IMG/VR virus record: IMGVR_UViG_3300028586_000413
Coordinates: 1-62,515 of that record
DNA length: 62,515 nucleotides
Strand: one strand, 5' to 3'
Origin: a virus
Taxonomy: Duplodnaviria > Caudoviricetes
A program made the position numbers and the translations under genes. The notes under the pieces were generated by a model that was given only the letters and a program-made list of their open reading frames with translations, ran no database searches and had not been told where the DNA came from. This document shows positions 3,330-22,657 of this stretch, in pieces (within the stretch, counting starts at the first letter, position 1; every line of letters begins with the position of its first letter).

Positions 3330-3406
3330 CGGAGTGTAGCGCAGCCCGGTAGCGCACCTGGTTTGGGACCAGGGGGTCCAAGGTTCGAATCCTTGTACTC
3401 CGACCA
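3330..3406 (+). tRNA. tRNA-Pro (TGG)
   Basis: 77-nt cloverleaf, anticodon loop tttggga, GTTCGAATCC T-arm, CCA end. Confidence 0.97.
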
Positions 3407-3547: not shown

Positions 3548-3624
3548 CCGCCCTTAGCTCAGTCGGATAGAGCAACAGCCTTCTAAGCTGTGGGTCGGGG
3601 GTTCGATTCCCTCAGGGCGGGCCA
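3548..3624 (+). tRNA. tRNA-Arg (TCT), prophage integration target
   Basis: 77-nt cloverleaf, acagc-cttctaa-gctgt anticodon arm, CCA end. Confidence 0.97.
3580..3624 (+). repeat. attL core (3' half of tRNA-Arg)
   Basis: cttctaagctgtgggtcgggggttcgattccctcagggcgggcca, identical to 60981-61025. Confidence 0.97.
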
Positions 3625-3682: not shown

Positions 3683-3713
3683 TGCGCTACTCAATCGGCC
3701 TTGCGCTATTCAA
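3683..3713. promoter_or_regulatory. Putative integrase arm-type binding sites, left end
   Basis: tgcgctactcaa (3683-3694) and tgcgctattcaa (3702-3713); the same motif recurs near attR. Confidence 0.7.
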
Positions 3714-4773
3714 ATGCCAATTTCCCCGGCTTCACCCGCTCTGGTCGACGCCGGTAAACGCGCTGCGTGAGCTGGCTGTCGGCGTGCGCGAGCAGGGCGC
3801 GGGCGTGTTCCAGGGACTCGGCATCGCTGGCGCACTTAGCGCGCAGGTCGTGCTCCGTGAACCGCTCCTTGACGTTCGTCTCGAGCAGGATCCTCTCCAT
3901 GAAGCGCTGCCACATCGAGTCCCAGCCGCTGGCGGTTCCCTTCGCCTCGTTGAAGTAGCCTTCGCCCTTGCGGGTGCAGAACAGCCATGGCGCGATGTCG
4001 ACTGGGCGCACGGCCTTCGCCTCGGCGATAGCATCCCGCAACTCCGGCGACCATTCGATGATAAGCCGCTTGCCGGTGCTGCCTTGTGTCTTGCTCGGCG
4101 TGACGTGGATGCCGTCCTCCTGCAGGTCGGAGCTGGTCAAGCGCAACAAGTCGCCGCGGCGCAGGCCGGTCAGCAGCTTCAGCCGGATATACGCCTGGAG
4201 CACCAGCACGCTGCCCTTGGTATGCTTGCTCGGCAGCGACAGGCACTCGATCAGCTCCCAATCTTCCACATACCGGTCGCGCGGCTTTTCGCCGGCCAGC
4301 CGCACCTCGCCTTTGAACGGGTGCCGGTCCATGAGGCCCCACATGACCGCCATGGTGAAGGCATGCGACAGGACGTCGATCGCGCGGTTCGCCGCGACCG
4401 GCGTTGCCTTGCGCTTGTCCGCATACTGGTAGACATGTTGCGGCCGGAGCCAGGTCAGCAGCGCCTCGCCGAACACGGCTCGTAGGGAGCGTATTGCCCG
4501 CTGGTTCTCCACCTGGGTGCGCGTCGCTTTCGTCGGCACCACTTCGAGCGCGTATCGGTCGAGCAGTGCGCCGATGGACCGCGCCTGGTCGACGGACTCC
4601 AGACGCTTGGCCCATTCCTTGTAGGCGTCGGGCAGGGTGGCGCCGAGCCGGAATTTCTTCTTTCCGTCCCAGCGATCCTCCAGTCCGACCGGCACCTGGT
4701 AGTAGACCGCGCCGTGCTCGATCTTCCACCGTGCCGGCAGCCCGACATTCTCCTTGTTGCGCTTTCTAGGCAT
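3706..4773 (-). CDS. int: Tyrosine recombinase / phage integrase
   Basis: TGLRRGDL, HDLR and T..VY catalytic motifs; adjacent to attL. Confidence 0.95.
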   Translation of the reverse strand: MPRKRNKENVGLPARWKIEHGAVYYQVPVGLEDRWDGKKKFRLGATLPDAYKEWAKRLESVDQARSIGALLDRYALEVVPTKATRTQVENQRAIRSLRAVFGEALLTWLRPQHVYQYADKRKATPVAANRAIDVLSHAFTMAVMWGLMDRHPFKGEVRLAGEKPRDRYVEDWELIECLSLPSKHTKGSVLVLQAYIRLKLLTGLRRGDLLRLTSSDLQEDGIHVTPSKTQGSTGKRLIIEWSPELRDAIAEAKAVRPVDIAPWLFCTRKGEGYFNEAKGTASGWDSMWQRFMERILLETNVKERFTEHDLRAKCASDAESLEHARALLAHADSQLTQRVYRRRPERVKPGKLAFE

Positions 4774-10977: not shown

Positions 10978-11877
10978 TCATGATTTGGCCTCGCCGCCCA
11001 GGGCATCGACCAGGTCGGCCAGCAGCTTGGCCAGCTCGCCGGACATGAGGACGAAGTCGTTGTCGAAGCGCTCGGCATCGTTCGCCGCCGCGGTTTCGTT
11101 CTCGCGGATGACGTCCAGCGGCTTGACGCCCTTAATCGCCAGCGAATCGGTCAGCACGAAGCTGATGCGGTCGTTCCAGGTCATCGCCAAGCGCGTGCAC
11201 TGCTTGCCGGCGGCGATGTGGCGGCGGACGTCTTCAGGCTCGAGGGTGTGCGACTTGTAACCGATCTGGGCGCGGCTCTCGCCGGTGGCGCGGAGCGTCG
11301 CATCGCGGTCGATCGTGAAGCCGTATGGCGATTCGTCGGCTTCCAGCCAGCCGGTCATCACGGCGACCGGCGAGCGCTGCACGCGCAGCGATTCCAGCGG
11401 CATCTTGTCGACGGCCTTGAGCAGCAGCTTGACGACGTCGTCGGCCTTGCCCGGCGCCGCGGCGTCGACCACCAGCCAGCCGTTCTTCGGGTCGATCCAG
11501 ACCAGCGTCGTGCGGGAAATTGAGAATGCCTTCGGCAGCATCTCGTCCGCGGCGCGCTCTTTCAGCTCGCGCATCGCCTTCTTCCCAGGCGCGAATCCTT
11601 GCTGCGTCTCCAGCTCTGCCGCCATCGCCTTCGCGCGCTCGTTGACTGCGGCGCCCGGCAGGATCTTCTTCTGCGTCTTGAGCGTCAGGAGGAACTGGCC
11701 AGTCACCTCGTGCACCAGCGCGCCGTCGGCACCGCGCGGGCGGGCCCAGCCCTGGCGCATCAGTTCGTTGCTCGACGCGGGCGCGAACATCTGCGGGAGC
11801 AGCGCGCTGGCCAGGTTGTCGGCCGTCATGGCCCACGGGGAGGGCAGGCGGTACACCTGCAGGTTGCGGAAGAACAT
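10978..11877 (-). CDS. rdgC: Recombination-associated protein RdgC (phage-borne)
   Basis: MFFRNLQVYRL start, KILP, AFS...T.VWID..NGWLVVDAA, RFDNDFVLMSGEL motifs. Confidence 0.93.
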   Translation of the reverse strand: MFFRNLQVYRLPSPWAMTADNLASALLPQMFAPASSNELMRQGWARPRGADGALVHEVTGQFLLTLKTQKKILPGAAVNERAKAMAAELETQQGFAPGKKAMRELKERAADEMLPKAFSISRTTLVWIDPKNGWLVVDAAAPGKADDVVKLLLKAVDKMPLESLRVQRSPVAVMTGWLEADESPYGFTIDRDATLRATGESRAQIGYKSHTLEPEDVRRHIAAGKQCTRLAMTWNDRISFVLTDSLAIKGVKPLDVIRENETAAANDAERFDNDFVLMSGELAKLLADLVDALGGEAKS

Positions 11878-12048: not shown

Positions 12049-12486
12049 TCAGTGCGCGTCGCGCAGTTCGGTCAGGCGCTGGATCGCTGCACGCACGATG
12101 GCGGCCATCGTTGCAGCGTCCGGGTTCGGGTGGTCGACATATGCCTCGGTCACGTTGCGCCGCCCGCCGCCCGCGCCGACGGACACGGTGCCGTCTTCTT
12201 GATCGTGGCGGACGCTCAGGCCCAGCTCGGTGCTGAGCGGGCCTGCGGCGGCCCACGTGCGGCGCCAGTGCGGCGGCACTTGCGGCGTCATCGTCGAGAA
12301 GGTCAGCCGCGGCGAGGTGGCGCTGCTGCCGAAGGTACTCGTGCGCGGGCTCAGCTGCAGCGGCGCGTCGAGCGTCAGGGTGCCTGGCGCCTTGAACGTG
12401 CGCTTCCACTTCGGGTGCAGCTTCGCCAGCGCGATCTCATCCGCGAAGGCTTCTGCTAGGTATTCGTTGCCCCACTGCTTGGTCAT
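12049..12486 (-). CDS. Hypothetical protein, first gene of the PL operon
   Basis: ggag RBS; DAAT.AAIVRAA motif. Confidence 0.55.
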   Translation of the reverse strand: MTKQWGNEYLAEAFADEIALAKLHPKWKRTFKAPGTLTLDAPLQLSPRTSTFGSSATSPRLTFSTMTPQVPPHWRRTWAAAGPLSTELGLSVRHDQEDGTVSVGAGGGRRNVTEAYVDHPNPDAATMAAIVRAAIQRLTELRDAH

Positions 12487-12540
12487 ATTGCTCTCCATTT
12501 CCTCAGCCTGGCGATGCCAGTGTGCTCTATTGATTGAGGT

Positions 12541-12593
12541 ACTTTACCCCTAGGTAAAAACAAACGCAAGAAAAATATATACCCAAAGGTAAA
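12541..12593 (-). promoter_or_regulatory. PL-like promoter with two repressor operators (OL)
   Basis: TTGCGT-N17-TAAAGT on the minus strand; palindromes tttacccctaggtaaa (12543-12558) and tatacccaaaggtaaa (12578-12593) match the OR sites. Confidence 0.8.
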
Positions 12594-12610
12594 GTTCGGG
12601 ATAAAATGCG

Positions 12611-12880
12611 ATCCAGCAGCCGAGTTCGGCTGTTTGCACGCCTGGAGCAGGGAGGGGAAACCGCCGACGCCCAGGCTTAAGAGCCAAGGACGACCGGAAG
12701 GGCAACGCGTGGGTGGATCGTAGAGCGCGCCGGGGGACAGGCAGAGATGCCTGGGAAGTCTGCGAACAAGCGAAAGTGTCCGAAGGCGAAAGCATGGGAT
12801 GCAGTAGCCCTCCACGGAGGTCGGCAAACGTCGACCGCTCTAGGGAGGGTTGCGCTCTGGAACCGAGGCTCTGCTGGGAT
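12611..12880 (+). ncRNA. Candidate structured ncRNA, family unidentified
   Basis: Nested long-range helices, several GNRA-capped hairpins, upstream TAAAAT -10 box, no convincing ORF. Confidence 0.55.
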
Positions 12881-12976
12881 AAAACGAAGCCAGGAACTTA
12901 GAAAGACCTACCTGAACAGCCAAGGACAGAACCTGAACAGTACCTTTACAGGGTGCGTAGGAAAAAAGGCCCGAAA

Positions 12977-13369
12977 ATGTCGCAAAAATTGACGCTGGCG
13001 CGCTACCTGGAGGGTAGGGGATCGGTGAAGTCGCTGACCCGCATCGAGGCGGAGGCGTTCGGTGTACCGTACCCGCTCATCTCGGGCTGGCCGGCGCGCC
13101 ACGGCGACACGGAGATCACACAGGCAATGCTCGAGGACCTGACACAGCGCATCGCCGTCGCACGTCGGTCGACGGCGAGCAAGGCGTTGCGCGGGCTAGA
13201 TGGCGCGTGCTGTCCGAGTACTGCGCTGCGCCAAGACGATTGCGCCGCGGTTCGGGTGCAGCGGTCTTGCGCGGTGCCAGCACGAAGCCTCGAGGTCGCA
13301 CCATCGTTCCCTGGATTCGCAGTGCGGCCCGCGCGGCGCTCACGTGGCCGACCTGCATTGCCAGAGTAG
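12977..13369 (+). CDS. Hypothetical protein downstream of the candidate ncRNA
   Basis: 130 aa with AEAFGVPYPL..GW motif; oriented against the surrounding genes; hairpin follows. Confidence 0.6.
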   Translation: MSQKLTLARYLEGRGSVKSLTRIEAEAFGVPYPLISGWPARHGDTEITQAMLEDLTQRIAVARRSTASKALRGLDGACCPSTALRQDDCAAVRVQRSCAVPARSLEVAPSFPGFAVRPARRSRGRPALPE

Positions 13370-13434
13370 GGGCGTAAAAAAGCCCGCTCGAGGCAGGCTT
13401 GAAATCTCATCCCCGCGAAACCGGGGATCGAATT

Positions 13435-14223
13435 TTAGGCAGGTTTCGGTCCGCCCAAGAGCTTAGGAAGATGCGTAAGCGCCGTCGGATCGCGTTCACC
13501 AAAATATGATGCCGCTTTTTGTGGCAGCCAGACGGTGTTGAAGTGCGCACGGAACTCCGCTAGATATTCGTTTGGGTAGAGTCGTGCCTGGACTACCCGG
13601 CCATCTTGAAACCGATGGGGGTATGTCGGGAAAGCACACGGATCAACGCCTTTATTTTTTCGAATCCAGTCCGAGAACATCCGACCTTCAGAGATATCTG
13701 GCATCAAGCGCTCGGGCAGCGTATATCCTGAAGCCTCAAGGGGCGCGATCAGGCCAAAAATCAATTCGTTCAGCATGGAGAAATGGGTGACAGGTACGGC
13801 TCCTTGATTCATAACGTATCGCTGCAGGTGAACTGGCATCGTGCTGCGTGCACGAACTCCACCGCCCGACATCCATTCATGTACCCATTTGCTGACCTGG
13901 ACTGCAAATCTCGGGGATAGCCATTGCGCGAGGTTGATTGCAACTTGTGGGTGCACCCAAGTCCCTGATGATCTGCCACCCCGGATAACATGAACCAGCG
14001 TTGACGGCGACACTGCTAGGTCAATCGCGAGCTCTGAGATAAAAGCTTGCGTTCGGTCCGTGTCCCAGTAGTGGTTCCACTCCCTGCTGACCGCCCTGCA
14101 TAGAGCCGTCGCGTGGATGTACCCGTCGGAAGCGCGCTGATTGATTACGTTCCCATCCTCAACTTGATGAGGGATGAGCTCAAAGCTCAACTGTTGATGT
14201 TCGGCATGGTTGTGCGAAGACAT
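13435..14223 (-). CDS. KilA-N domain DNA-binding protein
   Basis: QRASDGYIHATALC and GTWVHPQVAINLAQWLSP.F.VQV..W motifs. Confidence 0.9.
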   Translation of the reverse strand: MSSHNHAEHQQLSFELIPHQVEDGNVINQRASDGYIHATALCRAVSREWNHYWDTDRTQAFISELAIDLAVSPSTLVHVIRGGRSSGTWVHPQVAINLAQWLSPRFAVQVSKWVHEWMSGGGVRARSTMPVHLQRYVMNQGAVPVTHFSMLNELIFGLIAPLEASGYTLPERLMPDISEGRMFSDWIRKNKGVDPCAFPTYPHRFQDGRVVQARLYPNEYLAEFRAHFNTVWLPQKAASYFGERDPTALTHLPKLLGGPKPA

Positions 14224-14531
14224 AAGTTCTCCATTATGGAGCCAAAGAGCATAAGAATCAGGTTTAGCTTGCTTAAGAGCTGTAAGAGTCTTATACTTCC
14301 TTGGCTGATCTACCAAACGGTAAATAACGAGTCCCGCCAAGAACAGCGTTAGATACCGGCGAATGAAAACTAGAGCCCTATGCGTGAGCATTAGGGCTTT
14401 TTGTTTTCACTGGGTATATTACCAGTAATTTTTCAGTTATTGGACAAATAACTGCTGGTTTTTTTGAATTTCTGGAAAAATACTGCTGCAACCACCTGCT
14501 AGCAGCCGGAATTCGATACTTGAGCGATCAC

Positions 14532-14800
14532 TCATAAGTTATTTGAACTGCTAGTGGTCTGCTTCTGAATCCAGCCTCGCCTTAACGCCCACCGCACCTC
14601 AGAGCGCCAAGTGATGCGCCGGCCTGTCCTGGTGGTGTTGACCGGATCCGGCGCCACCGCCGCCAGCTGCTCGAACGTGGAGCACTCCCAGATGATTTTC
14701 CACAGCGCCCACTTGGCCGGATCGGTCTCTTCGTTCGCCTGCAGGCGGTCCTTGATGAGGACGGTAAATCGGCTTTCCAGCAGTGCGCATTCAACGCGCG
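14532..14800 (-). pseudogene. Possible gene fragment or small hypothetical protein
   Basis: High-GC coding-like tract with no clear start. Confidence 0.35.
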
Positions 14801-14824
14801 ACGTCAGGACTCTATGAAGTCCGC

Positions 14825-15367
14825 TCATCGCTCGACAATGGGCCAGGCGCCGCTCTTGCTGTCGCCATTGAACAGGTCTTCGAAGTCGATTCGGCCCCAA
14901 CGTGGTGTGAGATACCAGTCGTCGTGGAAAGACGTATAGCCCGCGTTAAGATCCGGGAATATCCTCTTGCCCGCCAAGTCGTAATGTGCCAGTGAGCCAC
15001 TACCATTAGAGCCAATACTTTGATAGTAGATGTGCTCACCAATGCTGGTAGGGACAGCTATCTTGCGATATCGCATTCGAGATTGCTTAATGCCAGACCT
15101 TCGGTCAACAATGGGAAAGAAGGCCTTCTTCAAGGGGCAAAGGACATAGCGCCATAGAGTTGCTCTCGATGGCAAGAGTGTTCCCGCAACCATTATTGCA
15201 GAAAATAAGAGACCAATTTGCAGCTCAAGCAGGTGATTCTTTCGAAGTTCCGAAAAGTTCATTCCGAGCATGTGCTCCTGCGGGACGTACAAGATGCATG
15301 CGGTGAATAGCATTGTCGGCCAAGCGAACTTGACGACTATCTCTATTGCTTTAATCACATCGTTCAT
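14825..15367 (-). CDS. Membrane protein, SieB-like superinfection-exclusion candidate
   Basis: Two N-terminal hydrophobic helices with SieB-like spacing, low GC, immunity-region position. Confidence 0.5.
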   Translation of the reverse strand: MNDVIKAIEIVVKFAWPTMLFTACILYVPQEHMLGMNFSELRKNHLLELQIGLLFSAIMVAGTLLPSRATLWRYVLCPLKKAFFPIVDRRSGIKQSRMRYRKIAVPTSIGEHIYYQSIGSNGSGSLAHYDLAGKRIFPDLNAGYTSFHDDWYLTPRWGRIDFEDLFNGDSKSGAWPIVER

Positions 15368-15414
15368 AGTGAGACTCTCTGAATATCCCTATGGGACAAT
15401 AGGCTTTAAGAGGA

Positions 15415-15760
15415 TTAATCGACAGTAGCTGGCACTACGTTGATATCCCTGCCGTTGACCGTGAGGTGCCGTATCTCGCTAGTAGTAACGAATCCGACGC
15501 AGCTTGCCGACATTGGTACCGAGGCTCCAAGCCCATTCTCGAAGTGGAACGAGCCAGTTGGCCAAGCGAAATAGAACTCGTCACCCTTACCCCAGTTCTT
15601 CGTGTGGGGCGGCATCTCGGCGGCGCCGAACTCAGCCAGGCCGGCGATGCGTTGCTGGCACGCGAGGAGGCCGGTGTTGACCTTGCGATCATGCACCTGG
15701 CTCTCGCTCGGTACTGCCACGCGGTAGACGATCAGGCCACCCGATGCGATGAGTTGCTAG
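15415..15760 (-). pseudogene. 5'-truncated paralog of 16916-17440
   Basis: C..RI..L...PP..KN.G...EFYF.WP.G.F...SA.C.G motif shared; an in-frame stop lies 13 codons upstream of the GTG. Confidence 0.65.
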
Positions 15761-15788
15761 TGCACGGCCGGCCGTATGCCATCCTCAA

Positions 15789-16841
15789 TCAAGTCACTGT
15801 GAACTCGTATCCTGCCTGCAACGACCCAACCACTTGTGCTTGGTTTTCGGCGCTCTCGCTGAACTCGACTAGCATGTCGCTAACAGTGATGCTCTTGTTG
15901 TTCAGCAAATTCAGCCAGTAGTCAAAGCCGCCCTTGTCAGGAACCCGGTCCAGAACATTCTTGTAGACGCCGGTAAGGATAGTGTCGTTATCCGCGCCTT
16001 CTCCGTACAATTTTTTAAACTCCATCGAATTGCTGAACGCTTCCGCTACGCTGTTGAGCGACGCTCCTTGACCCATTTGGCCGATCCAATATCCAAGACC
16101 GCCCTTATCAGGGGTTCGACCAAACGCCGCCTGATATAGCCGGTACGCCTCTGCCGGGATTCCAGTGGTCTCCCATGAGATGTAGTTGCCACCGAAGAAC
16201 TGCACCCTTTCAACATTGGTTAGCGTGTCCGTGCCGCTCAATCCCTCAACGTCGAAGACAGTGATAACGCCATCTTTCTTGTTGACTGAATACATCTCAC
16301 GTTGTCTGCTCACTGCGAACGTATCCACTCCGGCCCCACCGTCTACAATGTCGTCAACATGTGTACCAGCTATCCAATCGCGGTCGCTGGTACCGACGAC
16401 GATATTCTGTTCTTTGACTGGCACAGTACCCAATTCTTCAAAGACGGCCACGGAAACAAATTTATTCGCATCTGCGTAGCCTTGATCCCAGGAAGCACTG
16501 ATGTAATAGGTGCCTGTGTAAGGGGCAATGAAAGACGCGTGATCATAGCCATAATCAAGCGCCCCATCGTCTACCGCAATTACATTCCCTAGGGAGTCAT
16601 ATGCAAGCAGGATAAATGGGTCGAAGAAACTCGAACTGATGACATCGTAGGAGGCACCTTCCACACCCTCGAAAACAAAGGTGTCATATAAGAGAGCGTA
16701 ATCCCTACGGGTTGAATAGAAAGCCTCATTTTCCCAAGAATACGACGGGTTGGTATTCTTTGTGAAAGTTAGGCGCGTTGCGATGTTTTTGTCGCTGGGG
16801 AGCAAATCCGGCAGATTGTCGTAGGTGTAATAGCTGGGCAT
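15789..16841 (-). CDS. DUF4214-domain surface/secreted protein with RTX-like motif (phage cargo)
   Basis: DIVDGGAGVDT, DTLTNVER, AYRLYQAAFGRTPDKGGLGYW, FSESAEN motifs; lower GC than the phage backbone. Confidence 0.88.
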   Translation of the reverse strand: MPSYYTYDNLPDLLPSDKNIATRLTFTKNTNPSYSWENEAFYSTRRDYALLYDTFVFEGVEGASYDVISSSFFDPFILLAYDSLGNVIAVDDGALDYGYDHASFIAPYTGTYYISASWDQGYADANKFVSVAVFEELGTVPVKEQNIVVGTSDRDWIAGTHVDDIVDGGAGVDTFAVSRQREMYSVNKKDGVITVFDVEGLSGTDTLTNVERVQFFGGNYISWETTGIPAEAYRLYQAAFGRTPDKGGLGYWIGQMGQGASLNSVAEAFSNSMEFKKLYGEGADNDTILTGVYKNVLDRVPDKGGFDYWLNLLNNKSITVSDMLVEFSESAENQAQVVGSLQAGYEFTVT

Positions 16842-16915
16842 GATTTTTCTCAACAGGGCATCTAAGCGTGCCGTTTCGCTCGCGCGAGTATAGCTGCTGC
16901 TGAGTTGTAAGAAGC

Positions 16916-17440
16916 TCACCAATCTTCACGGCGTGGCGAGGCGGTAACGTCCTGGCCGTTCAGGGAGAGTTCGGTGATCAGTCCGGTGTTGACGTTGCCT
17001 CTGCAGGTAGCAGATGCTGCGTTGAGCACCCCCTCCGCGTCGGCATAGAAGAACACGCCTTTTGGCCAGACGAAGTAGAACTCGGGCAGGGTGCCGTAGT
17101 TCTTCGCTGGCGGTGGCGCGGGCACTTTGCCGCCGACGGATAGGGCCGTGATGCGAGAGCGGCAGACCTCAAGTGCCTGTGCGACCAGTTCATCCGTAGG
17201 CGAATCGACGAATGGGCGCATCTGGCTGTCGCCGAGGATCACCAGGCTGACGGCTGGCACAGCGAGCGCGACGGCGCCGGCCCATCCCTTCCAGGTCGGC
17301 CATGCACGATAGGCCTCGCCTGCTTCAAATTGCTGCGCCTGGTAGACGGCGGCCAGCGCCTGGCCGCACCATGGGCAATTCACATACCGTTTCCGGCGCT
17401 GAAGGGATGATCCGCAGGCTGGGCATCTGATATTTGACAT
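16916..17440 (-). CDS. Zinc-ribbon, single-TM protein with probable periplasmic domain
   Basis: CPAC and CPWC, TM segment, C-terminal Cys pair. Confidence 0.7.
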   Translation of the reverse strand: MSNIRCPACGSSLQRRKRYVNCPWCGQALAAVYQAQQFEAGEAYRAWPTWKGWAGAVALAVPAVSLVILGDSQMRPFVDSPTDELVAQALEVCRSRITALSVGGKVPAPPPAKNYGTLPEFYFVWPKGVFFYADAEGVLNAASATCRGNVNTGLITELSLNGQDVTASPRREDW

Positions 17441-17534
17441 TGGCAGGCACCTCGGTCGCCGGCACGATCGCGCGGCCTTGACACGAATGCTACGCCTGTT
17501 CAGTAGCGGAAACTCTCACCAATTGTCGCGCACG

Positions 17535-17999
17535 CTACAGACGGCCAGTAAGTAGCCGGCCAGGTTGGTACACCACGCGGCCGACCACGTTCATCTGCCC
17601 GCTCCGTGCGTTGATCAGCTTGAAGTCTGGATGCAGGAAATTCAGATACCACTGGCCGCCGCGCTGGACGAGCTGCGCGACCACCGCCTCGCCGTCCCAG
17701 TTCACTGCGTAGACCTCGCGATTTCGCTTCGTCGTGTCGGCGGTGTCCACCACCACCCAGTCATCCTCGAACACCAGCGGCTCCAGCCCGCGGTCAGCCA
17801 CCTGGAGCGCCAGCAGGCGCGAAGCGTCAGCGCCCAGCGCCCGAATGGCAGATGTCGGCATTTGAATATGCTTCGCACCGAACATGTCCGGCTCGAGCTC
17901 GAACCCGGAAATTCCGGCACGCAGCCTGAGTTTCACTGCCCGCACCGCGATTGAATCTATCAGGTCAAAGACGTCCGGCCGGGGCTGCGCCCCGATCAC
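17535..17999 (-). CDS. Stand-alone S24-like domain lacking catalytic residues
   Basis: DRGLEP...DDWVVVD...VYAV..DGE.VVAQL...VVGRVV; GTGA overlap with the cI stop. Confidence 0.75.
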   Translation of the reverse strand: MIGAQPRPDVFDLIDSIAVRAVKLRLRAGISGFELEPDMFGAKHIQMPTSAIRALGADASRLLALQVADRGLEPLVFEDDWVVVDTADTTKRNREVYAVNWDGEAVVAQLVQRGGQWYLNFLHPDFKLINARSGQMNVVGRVVYQPGRLLTGRL

Positions 18000-18808
18000 G
18001 AGCGCGAGCGGCGATACCGCTTGCGGTGCTCGACCATCACGCCGATCACAATCAGGTGATCGATATCGCTGCGGAGGGTTGCGTAGTCGTTGTTCAGCGG
18101 AACAAGTTCGAACACCATGTTGCCGTTCAAATCCATACCACGCGGTCGATACTTCTTAAAGGTGGCCTGCTCGCCGCCGTTCTTTGCGACCACAAAATCA
18201 CCAGGGTTCGGCGCCAGATCGGGGTCGATGATCACTCGGTCTCCTGGGCGGAAGTCCGGCATCATCGACTCTCCCTCCAGCTCTAAGCTGAATGCCCAAC
18301 GCGACAGGTTCTCGTCATCGACGTATTCGATGGCGAAGCCAGCGCCAGGGGCGTATGGAGTCTCCATGTCCTTCAAAGCCCCAGCTTGCACAGCCGAGAT
18401 CACGGGAATCGGACGGCCGCCAAGGCGCGCCGGGGAGACATTCTCATCAAACTTCTTCTCTTCTTGCAGTGTTTCGTGATCGGCGCCGCGCGGACGTACA
18501 GGCGTACTGGCACCTTCTGTTGCGCCGTCAGAGGGCGTGTTCTGAGCCGCGGTGGTTGTGCCGTGCATTTCGGCGATTGCCGTTGCCTCGGTATCGAGCC
18601 AGCCTTTCGGCAGCATCAGCGCGCTTTCGATGAAGTCGCGCATATCCTCGCCAATACGCTTTTTCCCTTTTTTTCCATCGGGAGCCAGCATCCGCGAGAC
18701 GTAGGATGCCTCGCGGCCGATCTTGTTCGCAAGCGTGACTGCTTTCCCATCGCAGTGCGAGCGAATAACCGCGCGCAGATTTAGCCTGCGGATTTCAAAT
18801 TTGTCCAT
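17996..18808 (-). CDS. cI: CI-like repressor (HTH plus S24 autopeptidase)
   Basis: RRLNL..HTH, VQAG cleavage region, GESMMP, ATFKKY; divergent from cro. Confidence 0.93.
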   Translation of the reverse strand: MDKFEIRRLNLRAVIRSHCDGKAVTLANKIGREASYVSRMLAPDGKKGKKRIGEDMRDFIESALMLPKGWLDTEATAIAEMHGTTTAAQNTPSDGATEGASTPVRPRGADHETLQEEKKFDENVSPARLGGRPIPVISAVQAGALKDMETPYAPGAGFAIEYVDDENLSRWAFSLELEGESMMPDFRPGDRVIIDPDLAPNPGDFVVAKNGGEQATFKKYRPRGMDLNGNMVFELVPLNNDYATLRSDIDHLIVIGVMVEHRKRYRRSRS

Positions 18809-18826
18809 GTGGCATTCAATCAGCAA

Positions 18827-18884
18827 TTTACTTGCAGGTAAATGACCTGCAGGTATTGACTTGGGCTTTACCCAAGGGTAAATT
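18827..18884. promoter_or_regulatory. OR operators and PR promoter
   Basis: TTTACC-N4-GGTAAA-like sites at 18827-18842, 18842-18857 and 18867-18882; TTGACT-N17-TAAATT. Confidence 0.85.
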
Positions 18885-18890
18885 ACGTCC

Positions 18891-19136
18891 ATGGACAAAT
18901 TGCTTAAGTACCTGAACTCCCTTGGCAAGGATGACCGCGCCGCATTCGTCTCGGCCTGCGGTACTAGTGAGGGATACCTGCGTAAGGCGGCAAGCCGCCA
19001 CCAGGCATTCCGCGCTGAGCTTTGCATATTGCTCGAGCGCGAATCTGCTGGCGCCGTGCGCTGCGAGGACCTGCTGCCCGATGCCGATTGGGCATATATC
19101 CGCTCGCAGTCGGTGACTGCTCCCGTCTCCGGCTGA
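18891..19136 (+). CDS. cro: Cro/YdaS-like regulator
   Basis: CGTSEGYL...ER.S.GAV.CEDL.PD.DW motif; divergent from cI. Confidence 0.88.
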   Translation: MDKLLKYLNSLGKDDRAAFVSACGTSEGYLRKAASRHQAFRAELCILLERESAGAVRCEDLLPDADWAYIRSQSVTAPVSG

Positions 19137-19244
19137 GCGGACTGGTCGAGGCGGCGGTAGGTCAGTGCGGTCATGAGCTGTGTTGATCAGAAGTAATTAG
19201 GCAGTGTTGTCAGATTAGCTTGCCAAACAGAAAGAGTCACGAAG

Positions 19245-20581: not shown

Positions 20582-21300
20582 GCGACCTGACCCCGGACCG
20601 CTTCCTGCGCGACGTCGCCGGCCACAAGCTGACCATTCTGCGTGACGACGACGTTTACCGCCATCTGCGCTTCAGCCGCCCCGATACCGGCTGCATGCAC
20701 TTCGACCTGATCACGTGGCCTGGTCATCTGTGCTACGCCGGCGACATGGGCACTTACGTGTTCACCCGCCTCCGCGACATGTTCGATTTCTTCCGGCGCT
20801 CGAAGTCGAAAGACCCCTTCGCCGTCGACCACTACTACTGGGCCGAGAAGGTCGAAGCCGGCGGCCGCGCGGGCCGCGGCAACGGTGTGACCCAGTTCAG
20901 CAAGGCCAAGTTCGACGCCGCTGTGCGGCAGCGGGTCGAGGACTTCGTGAAGGGCGAGACCGGCGAGGCCGCAGACCTCGGCGAGACCGAGCTGCTCACC
21001 TGCGCGCTGGGCGATCTGCGCGTTGCCGTCGAGCGAGACGTGATCGGCGCCGACGACAACGATATCCGATGCTTCGACGCCGCCAACGAATTCGTCTTCG
21101 GCGCGGAAGACAGTGAGGCCTGGAGTGCATACTTTGGCGCCGAGACGACCTTCGAATTCACGGACTTCTGGGAGGTCAATCACGACGAGTTCACTCACCG
21201 CTTCCAGTGGTGCTGCTACGCGCTTGCCTGGGGCATCAAGCAGTACGACGAATCGAAGGCGGCGGCACGCGCGGCCGAAGGCGAAGAGGTACCAGCATGA
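20578..21300 (+). CDS. Hypothetical phage protein
   Basis: YRHLRF, FDLITWPG.L...GDMG.YVF, YWAEK, WCC.A..WGI..YD motifs. Confidence 0.8.
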   Translation: MSDLTPDRFLRDVAGHKLTILRDDDVYRHLRFSRPDTGCMHFDLITWPGHLCYAGDMGTYVFTRLRDMFDFFRRSKSKDPFAVDHYYWAEKVEAGGRAGRGNGVTQFSKAKFDAAVRQRVEDFVKGETGEAADLGETELLTCALGDLRVAVERDVIGADDNDIRCFDAANEFVFGAEDSEAWSAYFGAETTFEFTDFWEVNHDEFTHRFQWCCYALAWGIKQYDESKAAARAAEGEEVPA

Positions 21301-21746
21301 CGCGCGCCAGCTACGTCACCCCTGGCCAGACCGCCGCGCGCCTGGACAATCTGCGTCGCCTGGTTGGCGCGCTGCTGGTCGGCCCGCTGAGCCGCGCCGC
21401 GATCGGCAACCTGCTGGAGATGGGACCCTCCGGCGTACGCAAGTACCTCGCCGACCTGGGCGAGCGCGTCACCTCGGCGCGCGGCGACGACGGCCTGATG
21501 TGCTACCTGGCCATCACGCCGGAGCAGGCCCAGGCTTACCTGGCGCAGCTCGCGACGGCGCCGGTCTCGCGCCCGACCGGCGTGCCGAAGCGCGCGAAGG
21601 ATCTCGCCACGATCGGCACCGGCCGCCACATCCACGTTATGCGAGACGACAGCCACTTCGCGGTGCGCCTGCACTCGGCGCCGGCCGCGCGCGACCCGTT
21701 GGTCGCCGCCTTCTTCGGTGCTCGCGCTGCGGAGGTCCGCCTATGA
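21297..21746 (+). CDS. Winged-helix-like phage protein
   Basis: Coupled ORF with HTH-like segment and RDPLVAAFFG tail. Confidence 0.65.
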   Translation: MTRASYVTPGQTAARLDNLRRLVGALLVGPLSRAAIGNLLEMGPSGVRKYLADLGERVTSARGDDGLMCYLAITPEQAQAYLAQLATAPVSRPTGVPKRAKDLATIGTGRHIHVMRDDSHFAVRLHSAPAARDPLVAAFFGARAAEVRL

Positions 21747-22657
21747 AGGCCATCGATCTGTTCGCCGGTGCCGGCGGGTTCAGCACCGGCGCCACGATGG
21801 CTGGTGTCGACGTCATGTGGGCGGCCAACCACTGGCCCGCCGCCGTCGCGATCCACGCCCAGAACCATCCGCACGCCGCGCACCTGTGCCAGGACCTGCA
21901 GCAGGCGAACTGGCGCGACGTGCCCGCGCACGACATCCTGCTGGCGTCGCCGTGCTGCCAGGGACACAGCAAGGCGCGCGGCAAGGCCAACGGAAACCCG
22001 CAGCACGACGCCAGCCGCTCAACCGCCTGGGCCGTGGTGACGGCAGCCGAATACCACCGGCCGGCGTTCGCCGTCATCGAGAATGTGCCCGAGTTCACCC
22101 GCTGGGCGTTATATCCCAGCTGGTGCTCGGCGATGTATGCGCTGGGCTACGCGCTGACTCCAATGATCGTCGACGCGGCCGACCACGGCGCGCCGCAGCA
22201 CCGCGAGCGCCTGTTCATCGTCGCCGCCCGCGCCAAGCATCCGATCATGCTCACGCTGGAAAAGGGCCCGCACGTCCCGGCCAGTAGCTTCATCGACTTC
22301 GGCGCCGGTAGCTGGCAGCCGATTGAGAAGCCTGGTCGCGCTGCAAACACCCTGGCGCGCGTCGCCGCCGGCCGGGCCGCGCACGGCGACCGATTCATCA
22401 GCAGCTACTACGGCAATACCAAGGGCGGGCGGTCGATCGAGCGACCGGTCGGTACGATCACCACCAAGGACCGGCACGCGATCATCGATGGCGATCGCAT
22501 GCGCATGTTCTCGAAATTCGAGTGCCGTGCTGCGATGGGGTTCCCGGACACCTATATCTTGCCGGAGAAGCACGAGGACGCGATCCACATGCTGGGCAAC
22601 GCTGTGTGCCCGCCGGCCGCGCGCGACGTCATCGCCGCGATGCGGGAGGCCGCATGA
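21743..22657 (+). CDS. C5 DNA cytosine methyltransferase (orphan)
   Basis: DLFAGAGG, SPCCQG, ENV, Q.RER and LGNAV motifs. Confidence 0.93.
   Translation: MKAIDLFAGAGGFSTGATMAGVDVMWAANHWPAAVAIHAQNHPHAAHLCQDLQQANWRDVPAHDILLASPCCQGHSKARGKANGNPQHDASRSTAWAVVTAAEYHRPAFAVIENVPEFTRWALYPSWCSAMYALGYALTPMIVDAADHGAPQHRERLFIVAARAKHPIMLTLEKGPHVPASSFIDFGAGSWQPIEKPGRAANTLARVAAGRAAHGDRFISSYYGNTKGGRSIERPVGTITTKDRHAIIDGDRMRMFSKFECRAAMGFPDTYILPEKHEDAIHMLGNAVCPPAARDVIAAMREAA

Follow-up and report, generated by a model that had tools for sequence, protein, structure and literature searches.

Positions 12611-12882 of the virus record IMGVR_UViG_3300028586_000413 (IMG/VR; Caudoviricetes), whose 62,515 nucleotides are referred to here as the window, harbour on the plus strand what is almost certainly an RNA structure maintained by selection. 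The element is a folded RNA of about 270 bases of phages of soil bacteria, situated beside repressor-controlled early promoters, and is followed on the same strand by ORF130 (12977-13369), the gene for a small basic protein of 130 amino acids (aa). The role that we consider most probable, at roughly 45%, is that of a cis-acting regulatory leader of the early rightward transcript.

The interval between the promoter and ORF130 (12602-12976) is non-coding. Across 58 relatives each reading frame contains a median of two to four stop codons, runs of alignment gaps are mostly not multiples of three, and the open reading frames (ORFs) overlapping the interval match no Pfam or PHROG family, in keeping with a first-pass annotation of this DNA that had seen no convincing gene here. 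The same annotation had placed an RNA-level structure on the plus strand, and covariation, wobble pairs and conserved tetraloops agree with this assignment. On that strand 12602-12885 folds with -120.6 kcal/mol (z = -3.2), better than all 200 shuffled controls that had been proposed as a check, whereas the minus strand reaches z = -2.0 and is equalled by 8 of 200 shuffles; G-U wobble changes fit the plus strand only. Relatives were gathered through the downstream ORF, the upstream gene and a 20-base pattern within the RNA, in viral and metagenome contigs, which yielded 69 distinct variants. Conservation is continuous from the -10 box through the start codon of ORF130. Among 45 full-length variants of the form present in the window (type A), the mean nucleotide identity of the leader is 82%, against 55% for the coding DNA of ORF130, and the leader is the more conserved of the two in 988 of 990 pairs. 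BLAST of 12560-12960 against 50,697 GenBank phage records returned no match.

The core fold (type A, 12611-12882) is defined by covariation, by a covariance model, R1, that scores the window RNA at 295.5 bits, and by its fold z-score. RNAalifold run on a mixed alignment of 32 sequences produced a weak consensus (-36.7 kcal/mol), so the helices were identified via covariation instead. In a MAFFT alignment of 58 sequences and 66 pairs, 89.6% of the cells are paired compared with 84.4% in shuffles, and 194 cells carry double changes compared with 66, a number reached in none of 500 shuffles; a control with slid partners gave 22-74 such cells. Two-sided compensatory changes occur in 27 of the 66 pairs. 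The alignment fitted to R1 (52 distinct rows) is 96.1% paired, with 216 double-change cells against 59.6 in shuffles and two-sided changes at 37 of 54 pairs, figures that are biased towards the structure because the alignment was fitted to it.

Eleven local helices are backed by compensatory changes. The 5' hairpin P1 (12615-22/12627-34) had been called a competing fold; it is itself a covariation-supported helix, and it is the opposing global fold that lacks support. P1 is followed by a junction helix of three pairs (12635-37/12707-09), by P2 (12640-46/12670-76), whose apex (12651-55/12661-65) has an invariant GG.GG/CC.CC pattern and a GGAAA loop, and by P3 (12683-85/12701-03). PA (12719-24/12759-64), with an outer pair that is CG in 37, GC in 11 and AU in two sequences, encloses P4 (12738-43/12748-53), a hairpin with a GNRA loop. 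P6 (12776-81/12797-802) ends in a GC-GAAA-GC tip, and P5 (12804-10/12847-53 plus 12812-13/12844-45) surrounds a variable inner hairpin which is only 26% paired in the MAFFT alignment, where it is misaligned, yet visibly varies on both sides. Three hairpins seen in the single sequence are thus borne out by the relatives: P2 covaries among 58 distinct sequences, P4 shows two-sided changes in all six pairs, and P5 has covariation support around its variable hairpin. The GNRA loops that had been pointed out are likewise kept while their stems change: of 53 type A relatives, 37 have a GNRA and ten a GAAG loop in P4 (12744-47), and 50 have GAAA in the P6 tip loop (12788-91). Beyond the core, the 3' tail of the leader (12883-12976, plus strand) consists of a variable spacer, conserved AACAG repeats, P7 (12940-45/12951-56), an A-rich stretch and an AAGG ribosome-binding site; P7 is 94% paired, but its variation is one-sided only.

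The nested closing fold of the first-pass annotation fared less well, and the covariation among homologues that it had asked for was found for the local helices but not for its three long-range ones. These (12612-19/12871-78, 12680-85/12867-72 and 12721-28/12852-59) are 77.5% paired, compared with 77.0% in shuffles, with ten double-change cells compared with 6.1. The eight-pair helix joining the two ends is perfect in the window only, two helices of the earlier fold are mutually exclusive in that both use 12852-53, and 12719-24 pairs with 12759-64 rather than with the partners proposed before. The segment 12854-82 is nearly invariant in type A; no pairing partner was found for it, and a search of unpaired columns gave only lineage-linked pairs and no pseudoknots. 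A likeness of 12853-65 to boxA was considered and rejected: a boxA consensus has no match within three mismatches in the RNA and eight matches in the window against 5.7 expected, and its exact core was not found in two host genomes.

Comparison of the window with all 4227 families of Rfam 15 (cmscan, gathering thresholds) detects two tRNAs only, and at E-values up to 10 the region 12300-13600 gives chance-level matches (E 0.17-7.9); neither known self-cleaving ribozymes nor large ornate RNAs in Rfam 15 were matched. The earlier statement that the RNA cannot be assigned to a family therefore holds for the window, but not for a sister form. The relatives comprise three forms: type A, type B and type C. 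Type B occupies the same slot as type A, flanked on one side by the first leftward early gene and on the other by ORF130. It has in common with type A the 5' hairpins P1-P2, the 3' tail, the start region and ORF130. The middle differs, and in 11 of 11 type B loci it is RF02932, Betaproteobacteria-1 (79.9-93.2 bits, cut-off 49.4), a motif not detected in the window and six further type A loci (0/7) or in the type C loci (0/6). With RF02932 inside type B, part of the novelty assumed earlier is gone: the RNA has a relative among the orphan motifs already catalogued, and so is not categorically new. The motif measures 120 bases and has three hairpins, whereas the type A core extends over ~270 bases with PA, P4 and P6 as central helices; the type A stretch that aligns to RF02932 folds into 12719-24/12759-64, around the GNRA hairpin, and 12776-81/12797-802, both covarying. 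The type B unit extends beyond the Rfam motif by ~110 bases on the 5' and ~200 bases on the 3' side. In two loci (L103 and L127), and apparently in two others (L159 and L160), a type A-like P1-P2 is joined to a type B middle. Their common flanking genes (the 149-aa gene upstream and ORF130) and shared 5' and 3' parts link type A to members of the family by descent or context.

Betaproteobacteria-1 reportedly stems from a 2017 survey of 224 candidate structured RNAs. It shares with the element an occurrence in Betaproteobacteria. Among 151 sampled genomes from the order, RF02932 was found once, in an unrelated neighbourhood: the motif lies on the minus strand of locus L178 (~1501-1623, 64.7 bits), without ORF130 and without a P2-type domain. 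Since these flanks are missing there, the motif is a module that exists outside the phage unit too. The main text of the survey (PMC5737381) does not name Betaproteobacteria-1, whose gene neighbourhood its supplements may cover. Judged by titles and abstract openings, none of the papers found on prophage structured RNAs, on RNAs of Burkholderiales immunity regions and on Betaproteobacteria-1 describes the RNA, and neither Rfam nor these papers contain the type A and C forms, the unit in its whole length or its place beside the PL operators and ORF130.

Type C was recognised in a Burkholderiales genus with small genomes, where R1 matched over its full length (24-60 bits) in 5 of the 32 genomes. 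It retains the P2 apex, P3 (with GCC/GGC swapped to GGC/GCC), PA, P4 and P5, and is devoid of P1. It follows a gene for a Toprim primase and directly precedes an ORF of 72-92 aa, with an A-rich/AAGG start region similar to that of type A; further downstream come NinB, a RecA-dependent nuclease, or alternatively a Bro-N gene together with isrK/C4 RNAs. Scanning viral contigs with a gapped pattern yielded no further copies. In one type C locus (L172) matches to c4-a1b1, isrK and the C4 antisense RNA (2062-2255) lie 300-500 bases downstream of the RNA, before or over the start of the Bro-N gene, and this downstream region is a P1-type immI-like module of a small-genome Burkholderiales prophage. 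Among bacterial genomes, R1 matches 11 of 110 from the genus of the Massilia hosts (seven type A, three type B and one partial) and 4 of 151 in a family-level sample, and BLAST matches were obtained in 2 of 401 in an order-level sample; all of these sets are samples, so the lack of a match elsewhere means that the RNA was not found among the genomes searched, as distinct from being absent. There is one RNA copy per genome, and the copy in the phage is single. A partial, degenerate copy of the central portion of the RNA (L170, 1501-1643; model positions 106-245, 30.8 bits) is intergenic, after an exonuclease I-like gene and without ORF130 or the 149-aa gene that precedes the RNA in the window; it may be a prophage remnant.

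The promoter region gives an indication of when the RNA is made. What reads in the sequence as the leftward early promoter PL (12541-12569, minus strand) has a -10 element TAAAGT (12541-46), a -35 element TTGCGT (12564-69) and a spacer of 17 bases. The palindrome TTTACC-N4-GGTAAA overlying its -10 element (12543-12558) is designated OL1, while OL2 (12578-12593) overlies the -35/spacer region of the rightward RNA promoter. A pattern search finds four occurrences of TACC-N4-GGTA against 0.14 expected, and the same operator motif recurs, with zero to two mismatches, three times between the repressor gene cI and cro (18827-82); because they share this motif, OL1 and OL2 are OL-type CI operators, and the operator noted earlier beside the -10 box is a real one. 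The palindrome differs among relatives, like immunity types, and an operator-like palindrome keeps the OL2 place in all types. The -10 box of the RNA promoter, TAAAAT (12602-12607, plus strand), had also been read correctly: TAnnnT stands at the aligned place in 49 of 58 relatives, the remaining nine being one-base alignment shifts of the same box. A -35 element is not conserved. With the transcript probably starting near 12613-14, OL2 is centred ~28 bases upstream of the start, over the -35/spacer, and the arrangement is not of the PRM type. In phage lambda OR2 covers the -35/spacer of PR and abuts PRM at about -42. The position of OL2, like that of OR2 at PR, therefore speaks for repression by CI and not for activation, and this geometry suggests that CI represses the RNA promoter in lysogens. 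The RNA is thus probably made when CI is absent, and the earlier view of a lysogeny-expressed RNA behind a repressor-activated promoter finds no backing in an operator that lies at about -28 instead of abutting the promoter near -42.

ORF130, first flagged merely as a 130-aa reading frame, is a genuine gene, conserved among 69 relatives in the database, all of them hypothetical or without a name. In its product a variable linker connects a conserved helical domain at the N-terminus (~75 aa) with an arginine-rich motif, FPGF-x-LR-x-ARR, at the C-terminus. The AlphaFold model contains five helices, with a pLDDT of 73 overall and ~90 in the N-terminal domain. No Pfam or PHROG family and no usable Atlas match was found for it, and a Foldseek search of the PDB gave a best E of 3.6, with scattered small helix-turn-helix-like proteins at probabilities of at most 0.08. 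The suggested co-occurrence with the RNA is borne out: ORF130 lies downstream in 59 of 69 loci, and seven of the other ten end at the contig edge (59 of 62 evaluable). The type C small ORFs show no detectable likeness to it (hhalign probability 0.3%). Two of the loci (L126 and L127) carry, ~50-500 bases past the RNA, a 68-aa ORF on the RNA strand and a small convergent ORF, which might be a small two-gene cassette. In another (L037, 3399-3916 and beyond) an ORF130-like N-terminal domain is fused to an HNH nuclease motif in an ORF that is still open at the end of the extract, and this inserted fusion gene separates the RNA from a second ORF130 gene of the ordinary form.

Hints of transcription come from contigs of four RNA libraries, from four studies, that contain relatives of 12646-12797, 12647-12891, 12621-12765 and 12672-13012. 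The last, a contig of 530 bases, spans the junction between the RNA and ORF130. The libraries were located through the conserved RNA itself and are represented by contigs only, which makes them a weak hint of expression.

Our preferred interpretation combines these elements as follows. A weak promoter with a good -10 box would produce the RNA, and CI bound at OL2 would cover its -35/spacer; with OL2 in this place the RNA would not be made in the lysogen, and infection or induction would turn on its promoter along with PL. The core would continue through the ~95-base tail into the mRNA of ORF130, and once folded it may bind a factor of host or phage origin, or else the machinery of transcription or translation. 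Such binding would set the output of ORF130 and possibly the read-through past the terminator into the convergent moron/immunity block, which here begins with bstA, a BstA-like abortive-infection gene. In support of a leader, conservation is unbroken to the start codon, ORF130 follows, type C too stands immediately ahead of a small ORF, one contig bridges RNA and ORF130, and the terminator scan finds no terminator-like site between them on the plus strand. A number of observations weigh against it. The ~270-base core, with its long invariant single strands, exceeds what known leaders of this kind need, and the RNA-library contigs may reflect DNA carry-over. No expression platform was found: the sole helix predicted to sequester the ribosome-binding site (12710-14/12969-73) lacks covariation, and several relatives cannot form it intact. 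A consensus promoter scan demanding at least four of six matches per hexamer lists neither PL nor the RNA promoter. ORF130 is missing in three loci (L075/L077, L079 and L093), and other genes are inserted in front of it in L037, L126 and L127, so that the RNA persists without direct contact to that start codon. Finally, RF02932 occurs without these flanks, and Rfam files it as 'Gene; sRNA'.

Several of these points are equally what one would expect of a stable, stand-alone RNA acting in trans, by itself or as a ribonucleoprotein with the ORF130 protein. Such an RNA would appear early and have its target in the host or the phage, where it might serve, for instance, host take-over or counter-defence; it would be akin to the large ornate RNAs associated with phages. 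This possibility, which follows closely in our ranking, draws on the extreme conservation with its long invariant unpaired stretches, the terminal hairpin P1 at the presumed start, the retention of the RNA where ORF130 is displaced or missing, its place in type C within a longer operon before an unrelated small ORF, the other context and the sRNA filing of the RF02932 module, and the adjoining variable block with its abortive-infection gene. It has to contend with the lack of a terminator or defined 3' end after the core, with conservation that reaches the start codon and a contig that enters the ORF, and with loci without ORF130 that are few (three) and may be decaying remnants. Five host genomes, moreover, yielded no RNA or gene of the host for it to mimic or to pair with: besides the one RNA copy in each, the best extra match is 24 bases long (E ~0.04), belongs to no Rfam family in L151-L153 and lies inside a protein-coding gene in L151. 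A bolder version of the cis-acting leader, in which a large RNA reprogrammes RNA polymerase, or acts as a ribozyme, at the CI-controlled early promoter, is improbable in our judgement. On induction, transcription would then pass the terminators and run antisense across the entire variable defence/immunity block, irrespective of its cargo, silencing the prophage's abortive-infection genes, such as bstA, as well as cI; the type C device would carry transcription beyond the replication genes, and terminator-proof early transcription would explain its place before nin-type genes.

Expression in the lysogen from a promoter activated by CI on the operators is less probable still. A good -10 box without a conserved -35 is typical of activator-dependent promoters, OL1 lies ~63 bases upstream of the presumed start, a workable distance for some activators, and next to the RNA lies a block with genes of a type active in lysogens (BstA); nevertheless, OL2 crosses the -35/spacer near -28 in every immunity type, the geometry of repression, and the RNA is transcribed against the genes on the cI side rather than along with them. 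Small self-cleaving ribozymes are often intergenic in phage operons, as type C is, and the size, many tetraloops and invariant junction nucleotides of the element resemble those of catalytic RNAs. That it is a ribozyme cutting or processing the early transcript ahead of the small ORF is, however, a shade more doubtful again, given that even at E up to 10 no Rfam ribozyme is matched and that the sequence bears no mark of a scissile site. Least credible is a DNA-level element, for instance a recombination boundary at a hotspot of gene exchange or a protein-binding region, whose conservation mimics that of an RNA. Mosaic lambdoid phages do have conserved boundary sequences, and the element borders a highly variable block in which the neighbours after ORF130 differ (BstA in 4 of 69); the reading is disfavoured by the compensatory pairs (27 of 66), the one-strand G-U pairs, the retained loops and the strand-specific fold z-scores. 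Nothing in the analysis supports the replication-primer RNA that had also been suggested.

Comparable in position, among known systems, are the leader of the lambda N gene, with nutL and an RNase III hairpin, and the HK022 put RNAs, all of which act in cis on translation or termination. The put RNAs consist of two stem-loops in ~70 bases, and the N leader comprises ~220 bases. Both resemble the element as structured RNAs directly behind a repressor-controlled early promoter, and the N leader also precedes the gene of a small arginine-rich protein, as the RNA precedes ORF130. However, there is no likeness in sequence or structure, the element is present in single copy, and it is transcribed away from the PL operon and not into it. 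With antitermination RNAs of the put and EAR kind, which in cis let RNA polymerase pass terminators further along, only the position fits: behind an early promoter, facing terminators and, in type C, before nin-type genes; the comparison was made through the Rfam scan, in which the RNA matched no family. The C4/IsrK immunity RNAs of P1/P7-like and Gifsy-type prophages are likewise phage RNAs in the leader of an immunity-related operon, but each is an element in its own right, 50-90 bases long and with its own Rfam model, and none of these models matches the RNA. GOLLD, ROOL, OLE and raiA are similarly complex, tetraloop-rich and conserved, and some are prophage-borne, according to the abstract of PMC12286853; GOLLD and ROOL are much larger than the RNA described here, no ornate RNA in Rfam matches it, and unlike them it is tied to a promoter-operator region and a small ORF.

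The wider genomic setting is that of a temperate phage. The record is a virus of 62.5 kb with a completeness rating of 98%. Two tRNA genes (3330-3403 and 3548-3621; 64 and 68 bits) lie immediately to the left of the integrase gene (3706-4773), and this end is probably that of a prophage attachment site, with some host DNA included. The leftward early operon starts with the 149-aa gene (12049-12498, minus strand, from the ORF list), which diverges from the RNA and matches no Pfam or PHROG family, and includes the gene for RdgC (10978-11877); in 59 of the 69 distinct loci a relative of the 149-aa gene stands upstream of the RNA and points away from it, and RdgC lies farther to the left in 44. 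To the right, ORF130 and bstA (13435-14391, minus strand; KilA-N domain and PHROG 6287, E = 1e-56) converge on two G+C-rich hairpins, read from the sequence at 13381-13439. Hairpin 13409-28 is followed by CGAATTTT on the plus strand and hairpin 13381-99 by TTTTTT on the minus strand; they are probable two-way terminators, and neither is listed under the stricter rule of the terminator scan. An additional CI-operator core (TACC-N4-GGTA) at 14311-14322, within the first codons of bstA, could mean that CI acts there too, or could be a coincidence. The leftward genes between ORF130 and cI (13400-17500) have a G+C content of 47-59%, compared with ~65% elsewhere, and one of them encodes a DUF4214 protein (15789-16922). 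Across the loci the genes past ORF130 are mostly convergent, of lower G+C content and variable. The block has the appearance of a moron or defence-gene hotspot. The repressor gene cI, an S24-peptidase gene on the leftward strand, occupies a long ORF (17996-19174) with the start read at 18809, and a second S24-peptidase ORF (17535-17999) is directly downstream. A cro-like ORF begins at 18892, to the right of the three operators, with rightward genes beyond; early in this operon a 514-aa ORF (21113-22657) contains a C-5 cytosine DNA methylase domain.

Taken together, the orphan motif Betaproteobacteria-1 forms the central part of a far larger RNA unit that holds a fixed place in the genomes of temperate phages, beside the PL operators and before the gene of a small basic protein, and at least two further forms lie outside the coverage of Rfam. 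An RNA without a context thereby gains a setting, CI-controlled early phage transcription at the edge of a defence-gene hotspot, and cultured Massilia lysogens that carry the element enable tests of its role. RNAs of such conservation and elaboration usually bind important partners. If the RNA does control read-through or translation in the region of the lysis-lysogeny decision, a classic regulatory circuit would gain a new RNA component.

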